The notes beneath the pieces are model-generated. The model was not told the origin of the DNA, did not search any database, and saw nothing but the letters and a program-made list of their open reading frames with translations. Made by a program: the position numbers and the translations under genes. A stretch of DNA of 64,000 nucleotides from Escherichia coli (lineage in GTDB: Bacteria; Pseudomonadota; Gammaproteobacteria; Enterobacterales; Enterobacteriaceae), in NCBI RefSeq assembly GCF_050320075.1, contig NZ_CP190018.1. The stretch is one strand, 5' to 3'. Numbering within the stretch: the stretch's first letter is position 1; every line of letters starts with the position of its first letter. Of this stretch, positions 1 through 60,428 are shown one piece after another.

Positions 1-771
1 TATTCGAACCACCCGGATCTGGTGCGTCCGATTGCGTCTATCAGCAAATTAATGACCGCGATGGTTGTGCTGGATGCACGACTGCCGCTGGATGAAAAAC
101 TAAAAGTGGATATCAGCCAGACGCCGGAGATGAAAGGGGTCTATTCGCGCGTACGACTGAATAGCGAAATCAGCCGTAAAGATATGCTGTTGCTGGCGCT
201 GATGTCTTCAGAAAACCGCGCGGCGGCAAGCCTTGCGCACCATTATCCCGGTGGTTACAAAGCCTTTATTAAGGCAATGAATGCGAAAGCGAAATCGCTC
301 GGAATGAACAACACGCGCTTTGTTGAACCTACCGGATTGTCGGTGCATAACGTTTCAACTGCCCGTGACTTAACCAAACTGCTCATTGCCAGCAAACAAT
401 ATCCGTTGATCGGGCAGTTAAGTACTACCCGGGAAGATATGGCAACCTTCTCTAATCCGACGTATACGCTGCCGTTCCGCAATACTAATCATCTGGTGTA
501 TCGCGATAACTGGAATATTCAGTTAACCAAAACCGGCTTTACCAATGCGGCGGGCCATTGTCTGGTGATGCGTACGGTTATCAATAATAAACCGGTGGCG
601 CTGGTAGTGATGGACGCGTTTGGCAAATATACCCATTTTGCCGATGCCAGCCGCCTGCGTACCTGGATTGAAACCGGTAAAGTGATGCCTGTGCCGGCAG
701 CAGCGTTGAGCTATAAAAAACAAAAAGCCGCCCAAATGGCGGCGGCGGGGCAGACGGCACAGAACGATTAA
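1..771 (+). CDS. pbpG: D-alanyl-D-alanine endopeptidase (PBP7), 5'-truncated by window edge
   Basis: ORF 22..771 is open back to position 1. Class C PBP motifs SEN and KTG present. Sits next to dld as in E. coli. Identity from recall. Confidence 0.85.
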
Positions 772-808
772 GTGAATTCGGATGGCGATACTCTGCCATC
801 CGTAATTT

Positions 809-2524
809 TTACTCCACTTCCTGCCAGTTTTTCCGTTTACTGGTTTTACCGATCCCCGGATTCATGCTGTTGGTCGGATCGTTCTCGCGATAGAACTTCT
901 GCAACGTCTCCGGTGCTTTATACAAATGACCGACGTTATGCTCGGCAGGGTACTGCGCGCCGCGCTGCTGTAGCAGTTCCAGCATCTGTTCTTTTAACGC
1001 ATGCACATCCACGCCTTTTTTCACTATGTAATCCTGATGGAAGACATAGCACATAAAATGGCCGTAATAGAGCTTGTGCACCAGCTGGCTGTCGATCTCC
1101 GGCGGTAAATGCTCATACCACTCGGTGTCGTTACGCCGCAGAGCGATATCCAACGCCAGAATGTCTTCGACTTCATCGGAATGCACCGCCTGATAACGAA
1201 TTGCTGCGCCCGCAGCGGCGAAACGGTGTAAAAACGCTTTGCTGCCTTCCTCCGGCGTACAGACAAAGAAATCGCCTTCGGCCTGTTTGAAATAATCCAC
1301 CAGCCACGATTTGGCTTCGCCCACGCCATCGCCCGCCATTTTTAACAGCAGATGATGCTCGTATTTATCGCGCCAGTTTTTCATGCGCGGCGGTAAATGG
1401 CTGGGGAACAGGTGACCGAATTTTTGCATCGCACGGTCAGTAAAATGCGGACGGAAGAATTTCACTTTCTCCAGCATCGCATCGGTGCGTCCCTTGAGAT
1501 TAAAGAAGAACGGCATCTTGTCGGTGCCTAACTTATCAATCATCAGGAAGGTGTCTTTGCCGTATTTTTCCGCAATATCGTAGATATCCCGGTGCATATA
1601 TTCCCCGGCAACCGGCAGATTTTCGAAGTTAGCCAGAATATGACGGCGGATTTCGGTCAGCACTTCCGGCTGGTTGGTGCCGATATAAAACACCTGCTGA
1701 TTTTTTTCCGCTTCGAAGGTATCAAGACGTACTGCAAAGACCGCCAGCTTCCCGGCGCAACCAGAAGATTCAAATAACCGATCAGGATCGGCGTTATAAC
1801 GTGCGGGCGTGTCGGCTTCAATATCACGAACGCGGTGGACATAGTCATAATCGTGGGCGTGACGACCATCGTGACGCACATCGTCATCTTTGATGCGATC
1901 ATCATCCAGCTTGCTAAGGATCTGCTCCGGCGTTTCGCCCAGATCAATCCCCAGATGGTTCACCAGCGTCAGTTTGCCGTCTTCATTTATACGCGCGAAT
2001 AACGACATTTCGGTATACGCCGGGCCACGTTGCACCAGCGAGCCGCCGGAGTTGTTACAAATACCGCCGATGACCGATGCGCCTATACACGATGATCCAA
2101 TCACTGAGTGCGGTTCGCGTCCCAGCGGTTTGAGGGCTTTTTCCAGCGAATAGAGCGTGGTGCCCGGATAGGCCAGCACCTGTTCGCCCTTGCCAAGAAC
2201 GTGCAGCTTGTCGAGACGCAGGGTGCTGATGATAACGACATCGCGATCATAATCGTTACCGTTTGGCGTCGATCCTTCGGTCAGGCCTGTATTGGCGGCC
2301 TGCATCAGAATAATTTTGTCGGCGGTGACGCAGGCTTTCAGCACCCGCCACAATTCTAGTAGTGAGCCAGGGAAAACGACAGCCAGCGCGTCGCCCTGAC
2401 CAGAACGGAAGCCCTTGCGATAGCGGGCCGTTTTTGCGGGATCGGTGAGCAGGTGTGAAGAACCCACCAGACGAGCAAGTTCATTCAAAAAGGCTTTATT
2501 ATCAGTTGTTGTCATGGAAGACAT
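809..2524 (-). CDS. dld: FAD-dependent D-lactate dehydrogenase
   Basis: ORF track 809..2557. Start placed at internal Met (MSSMTTTDNK), giving 571 aa, the length I recall for E. coli Dld. Confidence 0.9.
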   Translation of the reverse strand: MSSMTTTDNKAFLNELARLVGSSHLLTDPAKTARYRKGFRSGQGDALAVVFPGSLLELWRVLKACVTADKIILMQAANTGLTEGSTPNGNDYDRDVVIISTLRLDKLHVLGKGEQVLAYPGTTLYSLEKALKPLGREPHSVIGSSCIGASVIGGICNNSGGSLVQRGPAYTEMSLFARINEDGKLTLVNHLGIDLGETPEQILSKLDDDRIKDDDVRHDGRHAHDYDYVHRVRDIEADTPARYNADPDRLFESSGCAGKLAVFAVRLDTFEAEKNQQVFYIGTNQPEVLTEIRRHILANFENLPVAGEYMHRDIYDIAEKYGKDTFLMIDKLGTDKMPFFFNLKGRTDAMLEKVKFFRPHFTDRAMQKFGHLFPSHLPPRMKNWRDKYEHHLLLKMAGDGVGEAKSWLVDYFKQAEGDFFVCTPEEGSKAFLHRFAAAGAAIRYQAVHSDEVEDILALDIALRRNDTEWYEHLPPEIDSQLVHKLYYGHFMCYVFHQDYIVKKGVDVHALKEQMLELLQQRGAQYPAEHNVGHLYKAPETLQKFYRENDPTNSMNPGIGKTSKRKNWQEVE

Positions 2525-2719
2525 TTTCCACTCCTTGTGGTGGCGAAAAAATATCACAAACTAGAATAGCGCCTTGTATAACAATTCAGCGAGTGAATAT
2601 TTTGAAAATTCAGACAATAAACTGAGCATTCTTTTTCTCTCTCCATCATGCTTATGGCAAACTACGGTTTTTGCACCATTTTCGCTGCCACGTCGGGCAA
2701 CAAAGGAAGAAAAATCCAT

Positions 2720-5017
2720 ATGAAATGGCTATGTTCAGTAGGAGTCGCGGTGAGTCTGGCCCTGCAGCCAGCACTGGCGGATGATTTATTCGGCAACCAT
2801 CCATTAACGCCCGAAGCGCGGGATGCGTTCGTCACCGAACTGCTTAAGAAAATGACAGTTGATGAGAAAATTGGTCAGCTGCGCTTAATCAGCGTCGGCC
2901 CGGATAACCCGAAAGAGGCGATCCGCGAGATGATCAAAGACGGTCAGGTTGGGGCGATTTTCAACACCGTAACCCGTCAGGATATCCGCGCCATGCAGGA
3001 TCAGGTGATGGAATTAAGCCGCCTGAAAATTCCTCTTTTCTTTGCTTACGACGTGCTGCACGGTCAGCGCACGGTGTTCCCGATTAGCCTCGGTCTGGCC
3101 TCGTCTTTTAACCTCGATGCAGTGAAAACGGTCGGACGTGTCTCTGCTTATGAAGCGGCAGATGATGGCCTGAATATGACCTGGGCACCGATGGTCGATG
3201 TCTCGCGCGATCCGCGCTGGGGACGTGCTTCCGAAGGTTTTGGCGAAGATACGTATCTCACCTCAACAATGGGTAAAACCATGGTGGAAGCGATGCAGGG
3301 TAAAAGCCCGGCAGATCGCTACTCGGTGATGACCAGCGTCAAACACTTTGCCGCATACGGCGCGGTAGAAGGCGGTAAAGAGTACAACACCGTCGATATG
3401 AGTCCGCAGCGCCTGTTTAATGATTATATGCCGCCGTACAAAGCGGGGCTGGACGCAGGCAGCGGCGCGGTGATGGTGGCGCTGAACTCGCTGAACGGCA
3501 CGCCAGCCACCTCCGATTCCTGGCTGCTGAAAGATGTTCTGCGCGACCAGTGGGGCTTTAAAGGCATCACCGTTTCCGATCACGGTGCAATCAAAGAGCT
3601 GATTAAACATGGCACGGCGACAGACCCGGAAGATGCGGTGCGCGTGGCGCTGAAATCCGGAATCAACATGAGCATGAGCGACGAGTACTACTCGAAGTAT
3701 CTGCCTGGGTTGATTAAATCCGGCAAAGTGACGATGGCAGAGCTGGACGATGCTGCCCGCCATGTACTGAACGTTAAATATGATATGGGGTTGTTTAACG
3801 ACCCATACAGCCATTTGGGGCCGAAAGAGTCTGACCCGGTGGATACCAATGCCGAAAGCCGCCTGCACCGTAAAGAAGCGCGTGAAGTGGCGCGCGAAAG
3901 CTTGGTGTTGCTGAAAAACCGTCTCGAAACGTTACCGCTGAAAAAATCGGCCACCATTGCGGTGGTTGGGCCACTGGCGGACAGTAAACGTGACGTGATG
4001 GGCAGCTGGTCCGCAGCCGGTGTTGCCGATCAATCCGTGACCGTACTGACCGGGATTAAAAATGCCGTCGGTGAAAACGGTAAAGTGCTGTATGCCAAAG
4101 GGGCGAACGTTACCAGTGACAAAGGCATTATCGATTTCCTGAATCAGTATGAAGAAGCGGTCAAAGTCGATCCGCGTTCGCCGCAAGAGATGATTGATGA
4201 AGCGGTGCAGACGGCGAAACAATCTGATGTGGTGGTGGCTGTAGTCGGTGAAGCACAGGGGATGGCGCACGAAGCCTCCAGCCGGACCGATATCACTATT
4301 CCGCAAAGCCAACGTGACTTGATTGCGGCGCTGAAAGCCACCGGTAAACCGCTGGTGCTGGTGCTGATGAACGGGCGTCCGCTGGCGCTGGTGAAAGAAG
4401 ATCAGCAGGCTGATGCGATTCTGGAAACCTGGTTTGCGGGGACTGAAGGCGGTAATGCAATTGCCGATGTATTGTTTGGCGATTACAACCCGTCCGGCAA
4501 GCTGCCAATGTCCTTCCCGCGTTCTGTCGGGCAGATCCCGGTGTACTACAGCCATCTGAATACCGGTCGCCCGTATAATGCCGACAAGCCGAACAAATAC
4601 ACTTCGCGTTATTTTGATGAAGCTAACGGGGCGTTGTATCCGTTCGGCTATGGGCTGAGCTACACCACTTTCACCGTCTCTGATGTGAAACTTTCTGCGC
4701 CGACCATGAAGCGTGACGGCAAAGTGACTGCCAGCGTGCAGGTGACGAACACCGGTAAGCGCGAGGGTGCCACGGTAGTGCAGATGTACTTGCAGGATGT
4801 GACGGCTTCCATGAGTCGCCCTGTGAAACAGCTGAAAGGCTTTGAGAAAATCACCCTGAAACCGGGCGAAACTCAGACTGTCAGCTTCCCGATCGATATT
4901 GAGGCGCTGAAGTTCTGGAATCAACAGATGAAATATGACGCCGAGCCTGGCAAGTTCAATGTCTTTATCGGCACTGATTCCGCACGCGTTAAGAAAGGCG
5001 AGTTTGAGTTGCTGTAA
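2720..5017 (+). CDS. bglX: Periplasmic beta-glucosidase (GH3)
   Basis: ORF 2648..5017. Start moved to MKWLCSVGVAVSLALQPALA signal peptide, giving 765 aa. GH3 family sequence. Confidence 0.9.
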   Translation: MKWLCSVGVAVSLALQPALADDLFGNHPLTPEARDAFVTELLKKMTVDEKIGQLRLISVGPDNPKEAIREMIKDGQVGAIFNTVTRQDIRAMQDQVMELSRLKIPLFFAYDVLHGQRTVFPISLGLASSFNLDAVKTVGRVSAYEAADDGLNMTWAPMVDVSRDPRWGRASEGFGEDTYLTSTMGKTMVEAMQGKSPADRYSVMTSVKHFAAYGAVEGGKEYNTVDMSPQRLFNDYMPPYKAGLDAGSGAVMVALNSLNGTPATSDSWLLKDVLRDQWGFKGITVSDHGAIKELIKHGTATDPEDAVRVALKSGINMSMSDEYYSKYLPGLIKSGKVTMAELDDAARHVLNVKYDMGLFNDPYSHLGPKESDPVDTNAESRLHRKEAREVARESLVLLKNRLETLPLKKSATIAVVGPLADSKRDVMGSWSAAGVADQSVTVLTGIKNAVGENGKVLYAKGANVTSDKGIIDFLNQYEEAVKVDPRSPQEMIDEAVQTAKQSDVVVAVVGEAQGMAHEASSRTDITIPQSQRDLIAALKATGKPLVLVLMNGRPLALVKEDQQADAILETWFAGTEGGNAIADVLFGDYNPSGKLPMSFPRSVGQIPVYYSHLNTGRPYNADKPNKYTSRYFDEANGALYPFGYGLSYTTFTVSDVKLSAPTMKRDGKVTASVQVTNTGKREGATVVQMYLQDVTASMSRPVKQLKGFEKITLKPGETQTVSFPIDIEALKFWNQQMKYDAEPGKFNVFIGTDSARVKKGEFELL

Positions 5018-24702: not shown

Positions 24703-27700
24703 TTATTCAAACAGGGCTTCAATATCGTTAATGAGTTCGCTGGCGGTGATGTCGTCGAGCACGGAGAACTGCGCTTCCTGAGTTGAATTACTCCCCCAGC
24801 CATAGCTTTCCGCTTTGCCTTCCCATAGCCACAGCTTGCTTAAGACCTGCTCAGCGCTAAGATCGGCTGGTGACATACCCACCGCAAAACCTTCGTCGAT
24901 TTCCATGATTAACGACCAGCGACCGAGAGGTTTGATCATCCATCCGATCCAGCCTCCATCCTGTGGTTCGCCCTTTATCCAGCCTTTATTTGCCAGCCCC
25001 ATGACCCGGCCGCTCGGGCATTTTCTGCCTGCCCAGCGGGTCAGTTCGCTGGCGTTGCGCTCGGCTTCTGTCAGGGCGTAACTGTTACGTTCAAGCTGAC
25101 GGAACGGTGGTAGCAGTTCGTAGTCGGCAAAAAGCTGACCAAAGGCGACAGCATCCGTCGGTGATATTTCCAGAACGTGAGGAATGCCAACAGAGATATC
25201 GCCTTCCTGCAAGGTGAAAAGATCATCGTCAGCGGTGCTGTAGCTGTTATCTTCCGCCACCCTAAAGCACGCCTGTAGCTGGTTTTCGGCGCTATAAACG
25301 CCCCAAATCAGACGGCGGGTTAAGTGACGAACCAGCGGATGCTCAACCAGGAAGAGCTGAAAGTTTTCCGGCGACCAGCGGCGGCGCAGGCACATGGCGG
25401 ATTCCAGCCTTGCTACCTGCTGGGCGGCGACGGTACGCGCATCTTTTTTCAGCAATTTGTAGCGGTTAACAGCATCGTTTGCCTGTGATTCATCATCGCT
25501 TTTATTGGGTTTAGGTAAGTCTTTCAGGCGGCTGCCGGAAACATCGCGCACAAACGGTTTTAAGGTTTCATCAAAGCTGACGGTGAACTGCCGTGGGCCA
25601 AAATCCAGCAGCAGCGAACCGTTATCATCCAGACCGAGAGCCGGTGCTAACCGATCTTCAAGCTCCGCTACCGTCAGTTCGCGACTTTCGGCAATGTCGG
25701 CAATTTTCTCTTTCGCCCGCTCCTGTAATGCTTTGAATTTCAGTTTCTGGGCAATGCCGTTAAGCTGCATCAGGGCGATATCACTACTGATAGCGGCGAG
25801 GATATCCAGCCCGACGGTGGCGCGTTTATGCTGGGATTCACCAGGCCAGGCGCGTATTAATGGCGTCAGTTTGCGGGCGGTGTCATCGTTACCGAGAACG
25901 CCTAACGCAGTGAACGCCCAACTCTCTTTCGACGGCGCGCCAGCGGTCTGCCAGGCGGTAAACAGATCCCAGGCAAATTCAGCCAGTGAGTCGGCGGTAC
26001 AGGCATCTTTCACCTGCAATAATCCCGGATACAGCGCCTCCTCCTGATGGAAGCGGAGCATTTCACCGAGGTGCTGGAGTGCGCTATCGGGCAGTGATTG
26101 GGCATTTGCTTTTAATACCGGGCGGGTCCAGATCGATGGCTGATAAAAGGCCGGAAGAGTGGGGATTTTTGTCGGGTGATTATCTAAGGGATCGAGCGCA
26201 AGCATAGCGTTCACCGCATCTGTTACTTCCGGCTGGTTATAACGCCGGGCGATTTCTTGCAGTAATGGTTGATGACCGTTTTCGGTAAGCATACGCAATG
26301 CAGCGCGGGCGTTATCCTGTGCTTCACCGGCTTTGCCGAGCGCCGCAGACAGCAGGCCGGTAATGGCGTGTTCCGGGTATTTCAGCAGCCAGGTGCGGGC
26401 GTCTTGTCGTAGGGTTTTGAGTTTGTTGAAGGCGCGGGCGACGGCAGGTGCCAGCTCACTCGCTGCGAAGTAATTCGTTATGGGCAAGGCTTCCTGTGGA
26501 TAGCGTGCAAGTGAGTTTACTAACCCAGGTAATCCTTTGAGTCCAAAATGTAACATGGCGTATTCGGTATCGGTATGCGGAGATAGAGTAAGGGCATTCC
26601 ATGCTCTTACTGCTTTCTCCAGCGGCAATGTTGTCAAAATCCCCAAATGCCAATAATGCCCGGTAGGTGAATGAAACACCTTAAATTCACTTATTAAAGT
26701 TGAATAATCTTCATTTAGCCATGCCTCAACTACCGCTTCGGGAGCTTTAATATATGTACCAGCGATCCGTCGTTGAAAACCCATCCTTGCCAACAGATTG
26801 GCAGTACTTTCTTCATGACTAACCGTGATGTGTTTTGAATACCAGATATATTTCGCCAAAAGTTGATTACTGATTTCTTCTGTCAGATAACTGATTGGCT
26901 CAATACCTAATGGTGCTAAATCAAGCACTGGAATCGGCGATTTTTTCTTTTTCGAAAGCCATGGTGGGGAGACTACTATGGCCGGCAGTAGATCGGCGCT
27001 GGCATGGTTTGAGGGCTGTGTCAGTTGTTGCTGGCATGATTTCAGCACTGCAACTGCGGGTGTCGAAAGCCAGGGAATGACCTGTTCTGCTAGTGTCGGT
27101 TGCGAGATAAGCATCGTCATTAGCATAATGCGCCAACTATTCTCTTCTTTTTGCACTAGAAGTTCCGCCAGTGCTGCCAGTGCTGCGTGTGGGAACGCAG
27201 CGCAGGCTTTCGTCATTCGATCGTGACAGCGTTTAGTATGCCCTGCTACACGTATAAGCAGTGTTAATGCGAACGGATGATTGATATGACGCAACACATC
27301 GGCGCAGTAGTCACTTGCGACATAGGGAGCAAATCGGGGCAGGGCCGCAACACCTTGCTCCTGTAATACGGTGGCTGACCATATCGCACCACAATAGTAA
27401 TCATCAAAAATGGCATATGGCTCGTGATATTTTTCTAATGAGGCAAGAATGTGCTCATCAGTCGCCACTATTTTTAGCCACTCCAGCGAGGGTAATTTCT
27501 TTTGCCCCAGTAGACGCTGGGCAATTTCATGTGCAATTTCTGGTTTTTCGGGCAATAACAAAGCAATTAATGGTTGCCGCCATTCTGGAATATGTGGAAC
27601 TGCGGCAATAAGTTTTTGTGCACATTTTTGCCAGAGAGACTCTTCCGCCAGTGATAAATGTTTACGTAGGCGTAATTCAAAGCTGGAATATTGCTGCAAA

Positions 27701-28497
27701 TAATCAGGTGAAATGCCAGACGACAGGAAAACAATATTATTGTTGACATAATCCCATTCAATAGATATTTGTTGAAGATGTATTATTACATCAGTAGCAT
27801 ATTCCAGACCGCCTTCCTGAATAATCTGATCCATAACATCCGCACGCTCTTTATATCTCGTGCAGTGCAGTTCAAGTGCCGCGAGTACAGCCATTACCGG
27901 TGATGGTAATTTTGTCGTTTTCGGGCTGTTAATCAGATCGATCGCCTGAGCGATGAAGTTTTGCCACTCTAAAGTACAGGCGCTGAAGTCAAATGTAGCT
28001 GTTTTGTTATCCCGTTGCGACACGCCACAGGCTAAGCGACGTAACTGGGTTAATTTATCTACAGGTGTAACAGGATCTCCGGGAAAGCGGCGATGGCTTA
28101 AGGTGGTGGGTACGACTTCAAGCGGAAAAACGACAGCAATATCTTTTGCCAGCCACGGTAAAATAACGTCTGTATTTTTGTCAGCCACGTAGAATTCTGG
28201 TGTAACTGAGGGCTGTTCCTGAATGATGGTAGAAAAGTCAGATAATTCGAGAGATTTCGTTACCGTTCGAGTATGTTTCGATGTAGCATTCTCCGCATGT
28301 TCCACATACCCCTTTTTCGTTTTCTCCGCAATCAGCTTGAGTTCCGCTTTTTCCGCCGCCGCAGCATCTGCAAAGCTTTTTACCTGACTTTGCCCGTTGG
28401 TGCCGACTTTGCCCCAACTGATATTCAGTTCGTTTCCCTGCTGCTCCACCGCCCAGAATTTATGTGATTTTTCGTCCTGATAAATATAGGTTTTCAT
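24703..28497 (-). CDS. molR: WGR-domain / DUF4132 protein (MolR family), intact 1264 aa
   Basis: N-terminus MKTYIYQDEKSHKFWAVEQQGNELNISWGKVGT is WGR-like. Length equals the K-12 molR pseudogene product as I recall it. 9-nt gap to yehI. Confidence 0.8.
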   Translation of the reverse strand: MKTYIYQDEKSHKFWAVEQQGNELNISWGKVGTNGQSQVKSFADAAAAEKAELKLIAEKTKKGYVEHAENATSKHTRTVTKSLELSDFSTIIQEQPSVTPEFYVADKNTDVILPWLAKDIAVVFPLEVVPTTLSHRRFPGDPVTPVDKLTQLRRLACGVSQRDNKTATFDFSACTLEWQNFIAQAIDLINSPKTTKLPSPVMAVLAALELHCTRYKERADVMDQIIQEGGLEYATDVIIHLQQISIEWDYVNNNIVFLSSGISPDYLQQYSSFELRLRKHLSLAEESLWQKCAQKLIAAVPHIPEWRQPLIALLLPEKPEIAHEIAQRLLGQKKLPSLEWLKIVATDEHILASLEKYHEPYAIFDDYYCGAIWSATVLQEQGVAALPRFAPYVASDYCADVLRHINHPFALTLLIRVAGHTKRCHDRMTKACAAFPHAALAALAELLVQKEENSWRIMLMTMLISQPTLAEQVIPWLSTPAVAVLKSCQQQLTQPSNHASADLLPAIVVSPPWLSKKKKSPIPVLDLAPLGIEPISYLTEEISNQLLAKYIWYSKHITVSHEESTANLLARMGFQRRIAGTYIKAPEAVVEAWLNEDYSTLISEFKVFHSPTGHYWHLGILTTLPLEKAVRAWNALTLSPHTDTEYAMLHFGLKGLPGLVNSLARYPQEALPITNYFAASELAPAVARAFNKLKTLRQDARTWLLKYPEHAITGLLSAALGKAGEAQDNARAALRMLTENGHQPLLQEIARRYNQPEVTDAVNAMLALDPLDNHPTKIPTLPAFYQPSIWTRPVLKANAQSLPDSALQHLGEMLRFHQEEALYPGLLQVKDACTADSLAEFAWDLFTAWQTAGAPSKESWAFTALGVLGNDDTARKLTPLIRAWPGESQHKRATVGLDILAAISSDIALMQLNGIAQKLKFKALQERAKEKIADIAESRELTVAELEDRLAPALGLDDNGSLLLDFGPRQFTVSFDETLKPFVRDVSGSRLKDLPKPNKSDDESQANDAVNRYKLLKKDARTVAAQQVARLESAMCLRRRWSPENFQLFLVEHPLVRHLTRRLIWGVYSAENQLQACFRVAEDNSYSTADDDLFTLQEGDISVGIPHVLEISPTDAVAFGQLFADYELLPPFRQLERNSYALTEAERNASELTRWAGRKCPSGRVMGLANKGWIKGEPQDGGWIGWMIKPLGRWSLIMEIDEGFAVGMSPADLSAEQVLSKLWLWEGKAESYGWGSNSTQEAQFSVLDDITASELINDIEALFE

Positions 28498-28509
28498 TGC
28501 AAAGTCCTT

Positions 28510-31500
28510 TTAATCAAAAAGTGATTCGATGTCGTTAATGAGTTCGCTGGCGGTGATGGCATCAAGCGCGGAGAACGTGAGCGAGGGCTGTGTACTGTAG
28601 CGTTCCCCTGGTGAAGTGATTTTTACGCTTTCAACAGGTAGCAGGTCGCTATACCCCGTTTCGCCATAAATTAATGAAAAATGTTCTGTTTCAAGTTCGA
28701 GAGCGCCATAAGGGGTAGATTTGCGCATCGCATAGACGCTGCCGCTTTCTTCCAGACGTTGCCAGCCTCGACGTTCCAGCCCGACAATGCGCCCGGCCTG
28801 GCAAAGACGTCCTTGCCAGCGTATCAATTCATGGGTATCACGTTCATTATCAGTAAGGTGGTAATAACCACGATCGAGTTGGCGAAAGGGAGGAAGCTTT
28901 TCGTAATCAGCATAAATTTGCCCAAATGCAGTGGCGGATTCAGGAGATATTTCCAGCACATGCGGTATACCGATGTTTCCTGCTGGCAGCGTGAATAACT
29001 CATCCTGCGCATCGCTGTAAGTGCTGTCTTCTGCGACCCGGAAGCAGGCGATCAGCGTGTTTTCCTCAGTATATACCCCCCATAACACCCGTCGGGTTAA
29101 GTGACGTACCAGCGGATGCTCCACCAGAAACAGGCGGAACTGCTCTGCCGTCCAGCGTCTGCGCTGGCACATATCCTGCTCCAGACGATCAATCTGCTGG
29201 CTGGCAATGGCGTGCACATCTTTCTTCAATTGTTTGAAGAGGTTAACGGAGTCAGTTGCCAGTGTTTGATCATCGCTCTGATTTGGTTTGGGTAAATCTT
29301 TCAGGACTTTGCCGTTTGCATCGTGCACTACAGGTTTTAAGGTTTCGTCAAAACCAACGGTGAATTGACGTGGGCCGAAATCCAGTATCAGCGAGCCACT
29401 GTTATCAAGCCCTAAATCTGGAGCCAGGCGGTCTTCCAGTTCAGCCATAGTCAGCCCACGGTTTTCAGCAACTATGTTGATTTTCTCGCGGGCATGTTCC
29501 TGTAATGCTTTGAATTTAATTTTTCGCGCGATGCCATTAAGCAGCATTAGCGCAACATCGCTGCCAATATCAGCTAATACATCCAGCCCGTAAACCGCGC
29601 GTTTATGCTGGGATTCACCCGGCCAGGCACGGATAAGCGGGGTTAATTTACGTGCGGTGTCGTCATTGCCTAAAATCCCAAGCGAAGTAAATGCCCAGTT
29701 TTCTTTTGCGGGTGCGCCAGCTTCTGTCCATGCCGTGTAGAGATCCCAGCCAAAGTCAGCCAGTGATTCGTGGGTGAAGGTCTCTTTGATGGTCGCCAGC
29801 CCAGCGTAGGAGGTAATGTCGCGTGGAAAGCTCAACATTGTGCCCAGGTGGCGCATAGCGTCATCTGGCAGAGGCAGGTTGTTACTTTTAAGCCGTGGTC
29901 TGCGCCATAAGGTGAACTGATAAAAGCCGGGCAGTGGGGCGATTTTAGCGGGATATTCTTCCAGCGGATCGCTATCGAACAATGTTGCCAGCGCAGCTAA
30001 AACATCAGGTTGGTTGTATCTCCGGCCGATTTCTTCAATCGTTTCTCGCTGGTTTAATTTCACTAGCAGGCGGAATGCCTGGCGGGCATATTCCCGATTT
30101 TGGCACGGTTTGCCCAGCGCCAAAGGCAGTAGCCCGGCGGCGGCATGGCGCGGGTTATTTGCCAGCCAATTAATGGCATCCTTGTAAGCCATTTTTTTCT
30201 GTAACCGCTGCGCCATTGGTAAGGCTAGTTCACTGGCCCCAATAAAGAGGGTGAATATCCACAGTCGTTGATGATCTCGTTGCAAGCAGGTCATAAACGC
30301 AGGAATGGCCGTACTACCAAAAACTGCCAGAATCTCTTTCTCACCTGAATATCGCTCCTCAATGATTATTTGGTTGAGAAATGAAATCGCCTGTTGTCCC
30401 GGTAAGTAACAAAGCGCAGATAGATTCCAGCTTTTGTTGGCATTGTTGTGATATTTCGCAAACTCAGCTTTTAGTGCTGGAAAATCAAAGCGCAACAAGG
30501 CATCAACAGCGCTTTGCGGTATATATTTTTTTTCATGTAAGTCATCTTCGCAATGCAGCCATTCATTAAAACCTAATTGCCAAAGGATTTGTTGTTCTGG
30601 TGTAAAAGGAATGAAAGATGTCTCCCAGCTTTCTTTTTCAATTAGTGGCAGGTCGGTAAATAAGGTTTGCTGTGATGACTGATATTGCGCGATTTCACTG
30701 AATCTGGATATGTCAGTATGACTGATTAACTCTGTAATTCCTGGCGTGATGTCAGTGACTGCAGGGATGGGAAGCACCGGTAAATCAAATACGGGTATTA
30801 CATTCGTTTTCTTATTTATTACCCACGGTGGAGCGACAAACAGCTCCGGCAACATATCCGCAGTGGCGTATTCACATTCTTCAGCGACTAACTGAGTACG
30901 ACATTCAGATAAGATGCCTGCCGCTTTAGCATTAACCCAGGGAATGACGTCAGTGACTAAATCTGGCGTGGCGGTAATCAGTTTGACAAGCGCTTTACGC
31001 CACTGTGCATCTTCATGTATTGCCAGTAAAGTTGCATAAGCGGCAAGAGCCGCAGCGGGATGTTTTTGACAGGCTTTGCTTAAGTATTCCAGGTGCTTTT
31101 TCTTGCCAATTACACCGAGGATCAGAATTTGAATCGCATCCGGGTGATTCGTTTTCCATAGCCATTTGACAAGATCTTCAGTCTCGCTGATGCGCTCGAA
31201 GAGATAAGTGGGATTGTCAGAATGCTCTTCCGTAAACTCAAGAAGTATCCGGCTTACACCGCGCACCCCATTATTTGCCAGCAACATTGCCAGATAAGCG
31301 CGAAAATCATGATACAACGGTGGGAAGTCGTATTTTTCTGCTGTAGTCAGAGCGGCGTCATCGGTTACCACCAGTCTTAACCAGGTCATCGCCGGAACGT
31401 TTTGATCTGCATAACGTAGCGCCATAGCATTGGCAATATCCGGGCGTTCAGGGAGCAGTAACGCCGCAAAAGGTTGCCGTGCTGGGGATAGCGAGGGAAT

Positions 31501-32307
31501 AGCAGCGAGAACTTTATCTACACAGCGTTGCCACTCATCTTCTGAAGCGAGTGAAAGATGATGACATAGACGTTGATGCCAGTTCGGTAGTGATTCTGCT
31601 TTGAGATCAGGGGGAATAATGGTGGTGACGTCGGCTTTTACTGGTTTATATTTGAGTTGAAGAGCGAGAAGGGCGATTTCAACGGTAGTTTCCAGACCAC
31701 AGCGAATGACTAAGTCATCGACCAGTTCATCTGTAGAGTAAGAGTTCCATAAATTCCAGAGCAATGCCGCATCAGATTGTATACTTCCTGTTTGTTGATT
31801 ATTCAGAATTCGCCTTTGTAACTCGGCAAACGCCAGCTGCCAGTTTTCAGGATAAGAGCGGTAATTATTGTCGGGGTCATATGCCCTGGTGTTATTCGCG
31901 ATGCGCTTCCATATTTGGCCATCTTTGTACAGATAATTGATCTCTCTGGGGCGAGAGCGATGAGGAAAAGCAAATCGATTAATATCGCCAGTTACCGGAA
32001 TGACTGCATCATCAGCCACCCATGGGCGTTTGTTTTTACTCTCAGGGGAGGTTTCAACTTCAGGAGTGGCTTTGGTGATGGGGGGGATATGCACGTTTGC
32101 TAAAGCATTTTCCACATAGCCTTTTTTCGTTTTCTCTGCGATCAGCTTAAGCTCCGCTTTTGCCGCTGCCGCAGCATCCGCAAAACTTTTTACCTGGTTT
32201 TGCCCTTTGGTGCCAACTTTTCCCCAACAGATATGCAACTCGTTTCCCTGTTGCTCCACCGCCCAGAATTTATGTGATTTTTCGTCCTGAAAGATAAAGT
32301 GCCTCAT
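28510..32307 (-). CDS. Second WGR-domain / DUF4132 paralog (MolR-like), 1265 aa
   Basis: N-terminus MRHFIFQDEKSHKFWAVEQQGNELHICWGKVGT. Same architecture as molR, diverged in the middle. 12-nt gap to molR. I do not recall a second copy in K-12. Confidence 0.8.
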   Translation of the reverse strand: MRHFIFQDEKSHKFWAVEQQGNELHICWGKVGTKGQNQVKSFADAAAAAKAELKLIAEKTKKGYVENALANVHIPPITKATPEVETSPESKNKRPWVADDAVIPVTGDINRFAFPHRSRPREINYLYKDGQIWKRIANNTRAYDPDNNYRSYPENWQLAFAELQRRILNNQQTGSIQSDAALLWNLWNSYSTDELVDDLVIRCGLETTVEIALLALQLKYKPVKADVTTIIPPDLKAESLPNWHQRLCHHLSLASEDEWQRCVDKVLAAIPSLSPARQPFAALLLPERPDIANAMALRYADQNVPAMTWLRLVVTDDAALTTAEKYDFPPLYHDFRAYLAMLLANNGVRGVSRILLEFTEEHSDNPTYLFERISETEDLVKWLWKTNHPDAIQILILGVIGKKKHLEYLSKACQKHPAAALAAYATLLAIHEDAQWRKALVKLITATPDLVTDVIPWVNAKAAGILSECRTQLVAEECEYATADMLPELFVAPPWVINKKTNVIPVFDLPVLPIPAVTDITPGITELISHTDISRFSEIAQYQSSQQTLFTDLPLIEKESWETSFIPFTPEQQILWQLGFNEWLHCEDDLHEKKYIPQSAVDALLRFDFPALKAEFAKYHNNANKSWNLSALCYLPGQQAISFLNQIIIEERYSGEKEILAVFGSTAIPAFMTCLQRDHQRLWIFTLFIGASELALPMAQRLQKKMAYKDAINWLANNPRHAAAGLLPLALGKPCQNREYARQAFRLLVKLNQRETIEEIGRRYNQPDVLAALATLFDSDPLEEYPAKIAPLPGFYQFTLWRRPRLKSNNLPLPDDAMRHLGTMLSFPRDITSYAGLATIKETFTHESLADFGWDLYTAWTEAGAPAKENWAFTSLGILGNDDTARKLTPLIRAWPGESQHKRAVYGLDVLADIGSDVALMLLNGIARKIKFKALQEHAREKINIVAENRGLTMAELEDRLAPDLGLDNSGSLILDFGPRQFTVGFDETLKPVVHDANGKVLKDLPKPNQSDDQTLATDSVNLFKQLKKDVHAIASQQIDRLEQDMCQRRRWTAEQFRLFLVEHPLVRHLTRRVLWGVYTEENTLIACFRVAEDSTYSDAQDELFTLPAGNIGIPHVLEISPESATAFGQIYADYEKLPPFRQLDRGYYHLTDNERDTHELIRWQGRLCQAGRIVGLERRGWQRLEESGSVYAMRKSTPYGALELETEHFSLIYGETGYSDLLPVESVKITSPGERYSTQPSLTFSALDAITASELINDIESLFD

Positions 32308-41454: not shown

Positions 41455-41487
41455 TGCATTTCCCCCTCATGATGAGGGGGCTTTTTT
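41455..41487 (+). terminator. Intrinsic terminator after yehA
   Basis: Hairpin tccccctcatgatgaggggg followed by ttttttt. Abuts the rcnB stop on the opposite strand. Confidence 0.7.
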
Positions 41488-41825
41488 TAGCGATGATAAA
41501 AAATCTCACCGTCGTAGGCTTTAATGATTTTACCGTCGGTGTCGCTGATCAACACGTACGCGCCACCCATATAGGTCCAGTGCGTCCCGGCATCAGGCGC
41601 GGGCAGGTTACGTAACTGCCACTGCTTAATGTTGTACTCATCGGTGCGGTACATCTCTGGGACGGTATCGCCTGGTTTGAAATGCTTAAAGTCAGCAATG
41701 AAACTGCTTAACTCATACTTAGAAATTCCCGAGGTATTGGTCGAACCCGCGGTGGCTGGTGCGGCCCAGGCGGCACTGGTAACCAGCAAAAGCGCACCCA
41801 GCAACATCTTATTTTTAATGGTCAT
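41487..41825 (-). CDS. rcnB: Periplasmic nickel/cobalt homeostasis protein
   Basis: ORF 41487..42005. Start at MTIKNKMLLGALLLVTSAAWA signal peptide gives 112 aa. Confidence 0.8.
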   Translation of the reverse strand: MTIKNKMLLGALLLVTSAAWAAPATAGSTNTSGISKYELSSFIADFKHFKPGDTVPEMYRTDEYNIKQWQLRNLPAPDAGTHWTYMGGAYVLISDTDGKIIKAYDGEIFYHR

Positions 41826-42043: not shown

Positions 42044-42868
42044 TTATCGCATTATGCCCATGAAGCCATGTACGCCCATATACACACCAACTAAGCCAAT
42101 CAACAGACTGGAAAAATAGGGGGCGCGTTTAGCGAGAGTGTTAAATCCGCTCCAGCGTTTTGCGACCTGCTGAACGCTGATTGCTGCGCCAACGCCTACG
42201 GTGACAAGCGTTAACGCCAGGCCAATGCTGAAACTGACGACCAGTGTTGCGCCCAGTGTCAGGGCTTTCAACTGAATGCATATCAACAGCACGGTAATTG
42301 CTGCCGGGCAGGGGATAAGGCCACCGGTTAAGCCAAATAGCAAAATTTGCCAGTTGGTGACCTCTCTACCATCAAAGCGTCGTTTAATGTCATTGGCATG
42401 GGCTCGTGCATGGGCATCCTGATACTCGCCATGTTCGTGATGGTGATGATGTCCATGGTCGTGGTGATCTTCGTGATCGTGGTGATGATGCTCATGATCA
42501 TGCTCGTGCATATTCTCCAGCCAGTTTCGTTCGCCGCGCCAGGTACGCCAGAACATCCAGAACGCGGTGCCAATAATGATCACTGCGGAAATCAACTGGA
42601 GCCACGGTTCTGCTGATTGAGCAGTAAAGCGCTTGCTGATCACCATCCCGCCAAAGGCAATCAACCAGACCACTGCGGTATGCGAAATGGTTGCTGCCAG
42701 TCCGAGCATCACCGCCTGTTTAATGGTGCCTTTGATGGCGATGATAAACGCCGCCATCATCGTTTTTGAGTGCCCTGGTTCCAGGCCATGAAGCGCACCA
42801 AGTAAGATGGCGCTGGGGATGAAGAACCAGGCGTTTCCTTGCTGAAGAAGAGTTGTAAATTCGGTCAT
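42044..42868 (-). CDS. rcnA: Nickel/cobalt efflux pump with His-rich loop
   Basis: 274 aa. Membrane protein with HEHDHEHHHHDHEDHHDHGHHHHHEH loop. Confidence 0.9.
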   Translation of the reverse strand: MTEFTTLLQQGNAWFFIPSAILLGALHGLEPGHSKTMMAAFIIAIKGTIKQAVMLGLAATISHTAVVWLIAFGGMVISKRFTAQSAEPWLQLISAVIIIGTAFWMFWRTWRGERNWLENMHEHDHEHHHHDHEDHHDHGHHHHHEHGEYQDAHARAHANDIKRRFDGREVTNWQILLFGLTGGLIPCPAAITVLLICIQLKALTLGATLVVSFSIGLALTLVTVGVGAAISVQQVAKRWSGFNTLAKRAPYFSSLLIGLVGVYMGVHGFMGIMR

Positions 42869-42905
42869 GATAATAATTCTTAGTATTAATTTGGCAATCT
42901 GATTC

Positions 42906-42940
42906 TACTCCCCCCCAGTACCTGATACTACCCCCCAGTA
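42906..42940. promoter_or_regulatory. Tandem RcnR operator sites in the rcnA-rcnR divergent region
   Basis: Two TACT-C/G tract-AGTA palindromes (tactcccccccagta and tactaccccccagta), matching the described RcnR TACT-G6-N-AGTA site. Confidence 0.75.
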
Positions 42941-42988
42941 GATTAATAGTGCTATGATTTTTCATATTCTTATTAACCAGGTGTTGCC

Positions 42989-43261
42989 ATGTCTCATACC
43001 ATCCGTGATAAACAGAAACTGAAAGCGCGTGCCAGTAAGATTCAGGGCCAGGTCGTGGCGCTCAAGAAAATGCTCGACGAGCCGCACGAATGTGCTGCAG
43101 TTTTACAACAGATTGCTGCTATCCGTGGCGCGGTAAACGGTCTGATGCGGGAAGTGATTAAAGGTCATCTGACGGAACACATCGTTCACCAGGGGGATGA
43201 GCTAAAACGTGAAGAAGATCTGGATGTCGTTCTGAAGGTGCTGGATTCTTATATCAAATAA
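42989..43261 (+). CDS. rcnR: Ni/Co-responsive repressor (CsoR/RcnR family)
   Basis: 90 aa, divergent from rcnA. Confidence 0.9.
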
Positions 43262-43359
43262 TTTATTAACGCGATTGTAAAACTGCGGTTTTTACTCGTT
43301 TACAACGCGTGCGCTGGACATTACCATCCTCCTCTGCGATTTATCATCGCAATCAAACG

Positions 43360-43483
43360 ACTCGGGGTGCCCTTCTGCGTGAAGGCTGAGAAATACCCGT
43401 ATCACCTGATCTGGATAATGCCAGCGTAGGGAAGTCACGGACCACCAGGTCATTGCTTCTTCACGTTATGGCAGGAGCAAACT
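43360..43483 (+). promoter_or_regulatory. TPP (thi-box) riboswitch in thiM leader
   Basis: ggggtgcccttctgcgtgaaggctgagaaatacccgtatcacctgatctggataatgccagcgtagggaagtc carries the conserved CUGAGA and thi-box elements. Ends at the thiM SD/start. Confidence 0.9.
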
Positions 43484-51389: not shown

Positions 51390-52095
51390 ACAGAAAACCC
51401 CCAGCTAGGCTGGGGGTTCCGGAAAGCTTTCAGCTTTGAGCCAGTTATTCAAACCCCTTTTGATTTGTTAAAACACCTTGCGGTCTGGCAACTGCAAGTG
51501 TCAAACAAGAAATCAAAAGGGGGTCCCAATGGGGGACGAAAAGAGCTTAGCGCACACCCGCTGGAACTGTAAATATCACATAGTTTTTGCGCCGAAATAC
51601 CGAAGACTGGCGTTTTACGGAGAGAAGCGTAGGGCGATAGGCAGTATTTTGAGAAAGCTGTGTGAGTGGAAAAGCGTACGGATTCTGGAAGCAGAGTGCC
51701 GCGCAGATCATATCCATATGCTTGTGGAAATCCCACCCAAAATGAGCGTATCCGGCTTTATGGGATATCTGAAAGGGAAAAGCAGTCTGATGCTTTACGA
51801 GCAGTTTGGGGATTTGAAATTCAAATACAGAAACAGGGAGTTCTGGTGCCGAGGGTACTATGTCGATACGGTGGGTAAGAACACGGCGAAGATACAGGAC
51901 TACATAAAGCACCAGCTTGAAGAGGATAAAATGGGGGAGCAGTTATCGATTCCATATCCGGGCAGCCCGTTTACGGGCCGTAAGTAACGAAGTTGAATGC
52001 AAATGTCAGATCGTATGCGCCTGTTAGGGCGCGGCTGGTAACAGAGCCTTACAGGCGCATTTGAAAAACCTCCGGCTATGCCGGAGGATATTTAT
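51390..52095 (+). mobile_element. IS200-family insertion sequence (boundaries approximate)
   Basis: Contains an IS200 TnpA gene. Left-end perfect hairpin aacccccagc-tag-gctgggggtt (51396-51418) and subterminal hairpins 52015-52060 and 52069-52090. About 0.7 kb, as expected for IS200. Confidence 0.75.
51529..51987 (+). CDS. tnpA: IS200 transposase TnpA (HUH/Y1 family)
   Basis: MGDEKSLAHTRWNCKYHIVFAPKYRR ... HIHMLVEIPPK (HuH motif), 152 aa. Near-identical to recalled Salmonella/E. coli IS200 TnpA. Confidence 0.9.
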   Translation: MGDEKSLAHTRWNCKYHIVFAPKYRRLAFYGEKRRAIGSILRKLCEWKSVRILEAECRADHIHMLVEIPPKMSVSGFMGYLKGKSSLMLYEQFGDLKFKYRNREFWCRGYYVDTVGKNTAKIQDYIKHQLEEDKMGEQLSIPYPGSPFTGRK

Positions 52096-60349: not shown

Positions 60350-60428
60350 TAGGGTGTCACCAGTAGGGGCTTTCAACGGTACAATGCGGGTTTGAGCGGC
60401 ATAAATTACCACTGAAAGCCCTTAAACG

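Follow-up and report, generated by a model that had tools for sequence, protein, structure and literature searches.

The gap between the divergent genes rcnA and rcnR of Escherichia coli contains two G/C-rich repeats that a sequence-only reading had taken for tandem operator palindromes of the repressor RcnR. The locus raises the question of whether the repeats are indeed that operator, and of what, beside the recognition motif itself, is held constant in and around them. We addressed this question in a window of 64,000 nucleotides, which is the whole stretch of DNA that was analysed. We consider it very likely (with a probability of about 0.96) that the pair is bound by RcnR and serves in E. 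coli as one tandem operator for both of the divergent promoters, that of rcnA(B) and that of rcnR.

Operator sites and flanking genes

The operator pair sits in a 120-bp gap between rcnA, on the minus strand, and rcnR, on the plus strand. [quoted passage not shown] From the rcnB side to the rcnR side, the genes and operator elements are the following:

41487-41825, minus strand: rcnB, periplasmic accessory protein, downstream of rcnA (Pfam RcnB PF11776, E = 7e-19; RefSeq)
42044-42868, minus strand: rcnA, the repressed target, whose product exports Ni(II)/Co(II) and contains a His-rich loop (Pfam NicO PF03824, E = 6e-70; RefSeq annotation)
42906-42920, minus strand: RcnR site 1 (rcnA-proximal), TACTGGGGGGGAGTA, an exact match to the motif TACT-G6-N-AGTA with N = G
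42921-42925: inter-site spacer of 5 bp, CCTGA on the plus strand, which sets the 20-bp register of the sites
42926-42940, minus strand: RcnR site 2 (rcnR-proximal), TACTGGGGGGTAGTA, an exact match to TACT-G6-N-AGTA with N = T
42989-43261, plus strand: rcnR, encoding the autoregulated Ni/Co-sensing repressor of the CsoR/RcnR family, 90 aa (Pfam PF02583, E = 3.5e-21)

The score of the rcnR product for PF02583 (DUF156) exceeds the gathering score, and its translation shows His3, Cys35, His60, and His64 as well as an R14-A-S-K17 motif. These four residues reportedly belong to the RcnR ligand set described by Iwig et al. in 2008. The RASK motif of RcnR is named in PMC3902906. Segment 42800-43060 of the window is 100% identical to the E. 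coli chromosome NZ_CP123240.1, whose annotation at the matching locus lists rcnB, rcnA, rcnR, a TPP riboswitch, thiM, and thiD.

Read directly from the sequence, the limits 42906-42940 first given for the pair are the exact site boundaries. On the plus strand, site 1 reads TACTCCCCCCCAGTA (42906-42920) and site 2 reads TACTACCCCCCAGTA (42926-42940), and the N positions of the motif fall at 42916 (site 1) and 42930 (site 2). In a repeat search, the two sites came out as a direct repeat of 15 nt with 93% identity, their starts lying 20 bp apart. The description of the repeats as two palindromic copies about 20 bp apart is right in part: the TACT/AGTA arms do form an inverted repeat, whereas the C/G tract between them is asymmetric; two sites are present, but in the same polarity, so that they make up a direct repeat of an interrupted palindrome; and the 20 bp hold from start to start or from centre to centre, whereas the actual gap is 5 bp. 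Throughout the 64 kb window, the pattern TACTGGGGGGNAGTA is matched exactly at these two sites and, with up to two mismatches allowed, nowhere else, for a chance expectation of 0.10, and two matches were reached in none of 100 dinucleotide-preserving shuffles; two exact matches against 0.10 expected indicate that the pair is real and not a product of chance. No third or degenerate RcnR site was found in the 64 kb window, in which allowing three mismatches added only two unrelated matches at background level.

The recognition motif published for RcnR is TACT-G6-N-AGTA, as quoted in three papers (PMC7055735, PMC3902906, PMC5146963) that cite Iwig & Chivers 2009 and Blaha et al. 2011 and that report direct binding of RcnR to this motif. 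Both sites match it exactly, in agreement with the proposal that they are consistent with the described RcnR operator, and the comparison with the published operator sequence, made with the motif as these citing papers quote it, revealed no mismatch in either site. The tandem arrangement is likewise found, in a register of 20 bp from start to start in the window and of 20 or 21 bp in 77 of the 78 species considered below. [quoted passage not shown] Judged by its sequence, the pair in the window is the known tandem RcnR operator at its native locus, intact and canonical, and as such is already known.

Conservation across species and predicted promoters

Of 100,044 species whose representative genomes were scanned for the exact pattern TACTGGGGGGNAGTA-N(0-30)-TACTGGGGGGNAGTA, 78 carry the tandem pair; they are spread over many Enterobacterales genera, Vibrio, Shewanella, and Chromobacterium. 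Because the search pattern fixed the motif, and the set was thus chosen by an exact match to both sites, the informative features are those that the pattern left free, namely N, the spacer, the flanks, and the neighbouring genes, and not the motif itself. By tblastn with the RcnR and RcnA of the window, an rcnR homologue (58-100% identity) was identified in 75 of the 78 loci and an rcnA homologue in 69; most loci that lack one of these matches have the pair near a border of the sequence retrieved. As far as the retrieved flanks extend, the tandem is bordered by divergent rcnR-like and rcnA-like genes, always in the same polarity. The distance between the rcnA ATG and the site closest to it is 32-44 bp (mostly 37-38 bp) in 68 of the 69 loci for which rcnA was matched.

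In 61 species the spacer is 5 bp long and in 16 it is 6 bp long, with a single species at 24 bp; it occurs as 38 distinct sequences with a mean A+T content of 77%. The spacer is constrained in length, to 5-6 bp, and free in sequence. The N base follows the position of the site, being T in the rcnR-proximal site of all 78 species and G in the rcnA-proximal site of 77. Beyond the sites, the only conserved flank features are the spacer length, a TAnnnT hexamer on the rcnA side, and a TGn-extended -10 on the rcnR side.

Some loci carry a different number of sites. The locus with the 24-bp spacer, in Vibrio diabolicus, contains a tandem of three sites, of which the central one has a G5 tract. An apparent third RcnR-like site is seen on the rcnR side in 13 loci of Enterobacter, Klebsiella, and Lelliottia, in inverted orientation (TACTCCCCCTGAGTA; TACTCCCCCGGAGTA in the Klebsiella loci), and in five loci of Kosakonia and a related MAG, in the same sense as the pair (AACTGGGGGGGAGTT); the extra site is absent from one K. 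pneumoniae locus. On a Ralstonia megaplasmid, a locus (62% identical) retains one clear site, TACTCCCCCCTAGTA.

The two conserved flank elements may be assigned to the two promoters as follows:

42903-42908, minus strand: predicted rcnA(B) -10, TAGAAT, whose first two bases are the last two of the site 1 AGTA arm
42950-42958, plus strand: predicted TG-extended rcnR -10, TGcTATGAT, 10 bp beyond site 2

The hexamer at the rcnA -10 position conforms to TAnnnT in all 77 loci with sequence there and is TAGAAT in 39; its last T is invariant (information content 2.0 bits), and the 5'UTR beyond it is not conserved. On the other side, 42 of the 78 species have TGnTAnnnT at an offset of +10 from the rcnR-proximal site, and the T of this TG is the best-conserved column of the rcnR-side flank, excepting the two bases adjacent to the site. 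We infer that the rcnA -10 is TAGAAT and shares its TA with the operator arm, that site 2 would occupy the place of the rcnA -35, and that the rcnR promoter would consist of a TG-extended -10 with the site 2 G tract in place of a -35. The reported position of the sites between the two start sites (PMC4124493) agrees with this placement of both -10 elements.

Two other candidates were rejected. A generic sigma-70 scan called neither of the proposed hexamers but only TTGCCA-16-TATTAT, on the minus strand and ending 1 nt before the rcnA ATG; as the rcnA promoter, this element would leave the mRNA with practically no leader, and it is not shared by other species, whereas the TAnnnT that abuts site 1 is conserved. 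For rcnR, the sequence TAGATT at 42939-42944, which mirrors the rcnA -10, has an unconserved sixth position (about 0.3 bits), and the TG-extended TATGAT at 42950-42958 was favoured because it is better conserved.

The overlap of site 1 with the predicted rcnA -10 bears on the view that the repeats are mere promoter or DNA-structure elements, with their G tracts and -10-like AT-rich arms, and serve no dedicated repressor. The AGTA arm of site 1 does lie within the TAGAAT conserved across species, so that part of the conservation may be promoter-driven. However, the full 15-bp motif is present twice and exactly, far beyond the needs of a -10 hexamer; the tandem recurs in 78 species, with the rcnR and rcnA homologues counted above; and RcnR binding to precisely TACT-G6-N-AGTA is published (PMC7055735, PMC3902906, PMC5146963). 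A promoter-only role is therefore very improbable.

Within the reading of the pair as an RcnR operator, it is conceivable, though less likely than not, that the two sites are not interchangeable: the N base is fixed by position across at least 78 species, possibly because the operator and the rcnA promoter are co-encoded. Site 1 would then provide, with its AGTA arm, the first two bases of the -10 TAGAAT, and the T-AGTA-T of site 2, 16-17 bp upstream of this -10, would act as a weak -35 (TAGTAT). An overlap of site 2 with the rcnA -35 region may explain why N is fixed though the spacer varies freely. If N and the promoter are co-encoded in this manner, rare one-site deletions of 20 bp, such as those of the nine E. 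coli genomes described below, would change both repression and the promoter.

Related operators and variation within E. coli

The protein family to which RcnR belongs has other operators of similar build. That of FrmR in E. coli and Salmonella also consists of tandem type-1 sites, in Pfrm, but differs in having ATAC/GTAT arms, a 9-bp GC tract, and formaldehyde, not Ni/Co, as the effector (PMC5146963). The type-2 operators of CsoR, from the same family, for example in Streptomyces lividans, Mycobacterium tuberculosis, and Bacillus subtilis, resemble that of RcnR in being pseudopalindromes with a G/C tract and GTA-containing arms, in which A-form character is implicated; they differ in that each site has a pair of short interrupted G/C tracts and binds two tetramers, and in that Cu(I) is the effector, whereas the type-1 site of RcnR has one unbroken tract and one tetramer (PMC3902906). 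The possibility that the pair in the window serves such a paralogue instead of RcnR, for example the formaldehyde sensor FrmR, draws on the existence of FrmR-like genes about 40% identical to RcnR. It is extremely unlikely, given that the FrmR sites described in PMC5146963 have 9-bp GC tracts flanked by ATAC/GTAT and are located in Pfrm, whereas those of the window have TACT/AGTA arms with G6-N and adjoin rcnR itself, the product of which is 100% identical to K-12 RcnR. Similar modules are also found on IncHI2 and related Enterobacteriaceae plasmids, in which a divergent rcnR (92% identical) and rcnA frame both sites, with order and 20-bp register unchanged; the IncHI2 copy differs by an AAATA spacer in place of CCTGA, diverged flanks, and a longer RcnA.

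The locus can be compared most directly with the rcnA-rcnR operator of K-12, with which it shares the sites, the spacer, their position, and the RcnR protein. In an alignment of window 42859-43261 to NC_000913.3, the operator and spacer, together with the bases next to them on either side, are base-for-base the same as in K-12 MG1655. The only intergenic differences lie outside the operator: position 42892, T in the window and C in K-12, in the predicted rcnA leader, and position 42972, A in the window and G in K-12, which falls within the predicted 5' leader of rcnR, at a distance of 14 bp downstream from the predicted rcnR -10. RcnR footprinting has reportedly been published on the K-12 operator, with a sequence identical to that of the window, and the operator experiments of Iwig and Chivers in 2009 (J Mol Biol 393:514) and of Blaha et al. 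in 2011 are said to have used K-12 DNA.

Of 5426 complete E. coli genomes, 5363 contain a 261-bp segment that spans the intergenic region, and a search with the 120-bp intergenic region returned 5211 of 5344 records within the 95-99% identity band. In genomes sampled down the identity ranking, from which the variation was read, point changes located outside the operator account for the common differences. Single-base variation affects positions outside the motif, the spacer, N, or the length of the site 1 C tract: strain CS18F has the spacer CATTA in place of CCTGA, in CRE1493 the N of site 2 is altered from A to C, as read on the plus strand, and the site 1 tract is C8 in strain 64.1 and C6 in the laboratory strain DTU-1, two sampled genomes in which these single-base differences may be assembly or sequencing errors. 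That the C7 and C6 tracts are slippage-prone contingency switches, which would tune rcnA expression by tract length, is suggested by these two strains and is nevertheless scarcely credible, since C7 and C6 are kept in nearly all genomes, six or seven bases are short for phase variation, the differences are confined to two assemblies and are possibly sequencing errors, and tract lengths are fixed across the 78 species, in a set selected by the search pattern.

A larger change, a clean deletion of 20 bp between the repeats, leaves one hybrid site in nine complete E. coli assemblies, among them 97-3250 (two separate assemblies), 90-3040, 2013C-3492, YPE10, MS1657, and VTB96929v. The deletion allele consists of a hybrid RcnR site, TACTCCCCCCCAGTA, followed by GATTAATAG, in an intergenic region of 100 bp.

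Proposed regulation and neighbouring features

To describe how RcnR would act on the shared operator, we take the tetramer stoichiometry, same-face binding, wrapping, and metal release from the literature, and place them on the sites, gene context, K-12 identity, species conservation, and -10-like elements reported here, with exact promoter hexamers that are predictions. Binding by apo-RcnR and release by Ni(II)/Co(II) are published for a sequence identical to that of the window (PMC7055735, PMC3902906, PMC7105576, PMC5146963, PMC4124493). When metal is not in excess, one apo-RcnR tetramer would sit on each TACT-G6-N-AGTA site, contacting the TACT/AGTA arms and reading the A-form-like shape of the G tract. 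Site 1 would then overlap the PrcnA -10 and site 2 would cover its would-be -35, while the extended -10 of PrcnR would lie 10 bp beyond site 2. From these positions, over or near both promoters, bound RcnR would be expected to occlude both, its occupancy and the reported wrapping of flanking DNA shutting off transcription in the two directions. The binding of Ni(II) or Co(II) to RcnR, through ligands that would include the N-terminus, His3, Cys35, His60, and His64, would lower its affinity for DNA, and the release of RcnR would allow transcription of rcnAB, for efflux, and of rcnR.

The result confirms that the window carries an intact, canonical Ni/Co efflux module (rcnR-operator-rcnAB) with wild-type regulatory DNA, and correct annotation is its main value. 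Mildly new are the N base specific to each site and the -10 embedded in the operator, both seen across species, as well as the natural variants with a single site and the additional sites of some genera. For builders of promoter-based Ni/Co biosensors and for work on DNA recognition by CsoR/RcnR proteins, the invariance of site order, N base, and spacer length across species may be of modest use, as may the -10 within the operator arm, the single-site variants, and the loci with three sites or what look like three.

Other features of the window were noted on either side of the operator. The interval from rcnR to thiM holds a TPP riboswitch (43353-43449, plus strand; Rfam RF00059, 71.8 bits), in keeping with what one expects of the thiMD operon. 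Compared base for base with NZ_CP123240.1, the window shows only two mismatches before position 60350, from which the register is lost, and this loss implies an indel or rearrangement relative to the NZ_CP123240.1 strain near yegQ. Within the segments ~16737-20104 and 24703-32307 (both minus strand), yehM (internal stop) and yehL (frameshift) are pseudogenes in the near-identical RefSeq record, and two large intact DUF4132/WGR genes are found between yehI and metG. A zorO/orzO type I toxin-antitoxin locus (20216-20291, minus strand, and 20537-20626, plus strand) occupies an unannotated gap between yehL, which the RefSeq record that matches the window gives as a pseudogene with a frameshift, and yehK; it comprises a match to the Rfam OrzO-P antitoxin sRNA (101 bits) and a 29-aa ORF, MDTLTQKLTVLIAVLELLVALLRLIDLLK. 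An IS200/IS605 tnpA (~51529-51987) is inserted between fbaB and gatY, and immediately upstream of it lies a match to the Hfq-binding RNA STnc490 (51396-51519, plus strand, 144 bits), which probably corresponds to the IS200 leader region.
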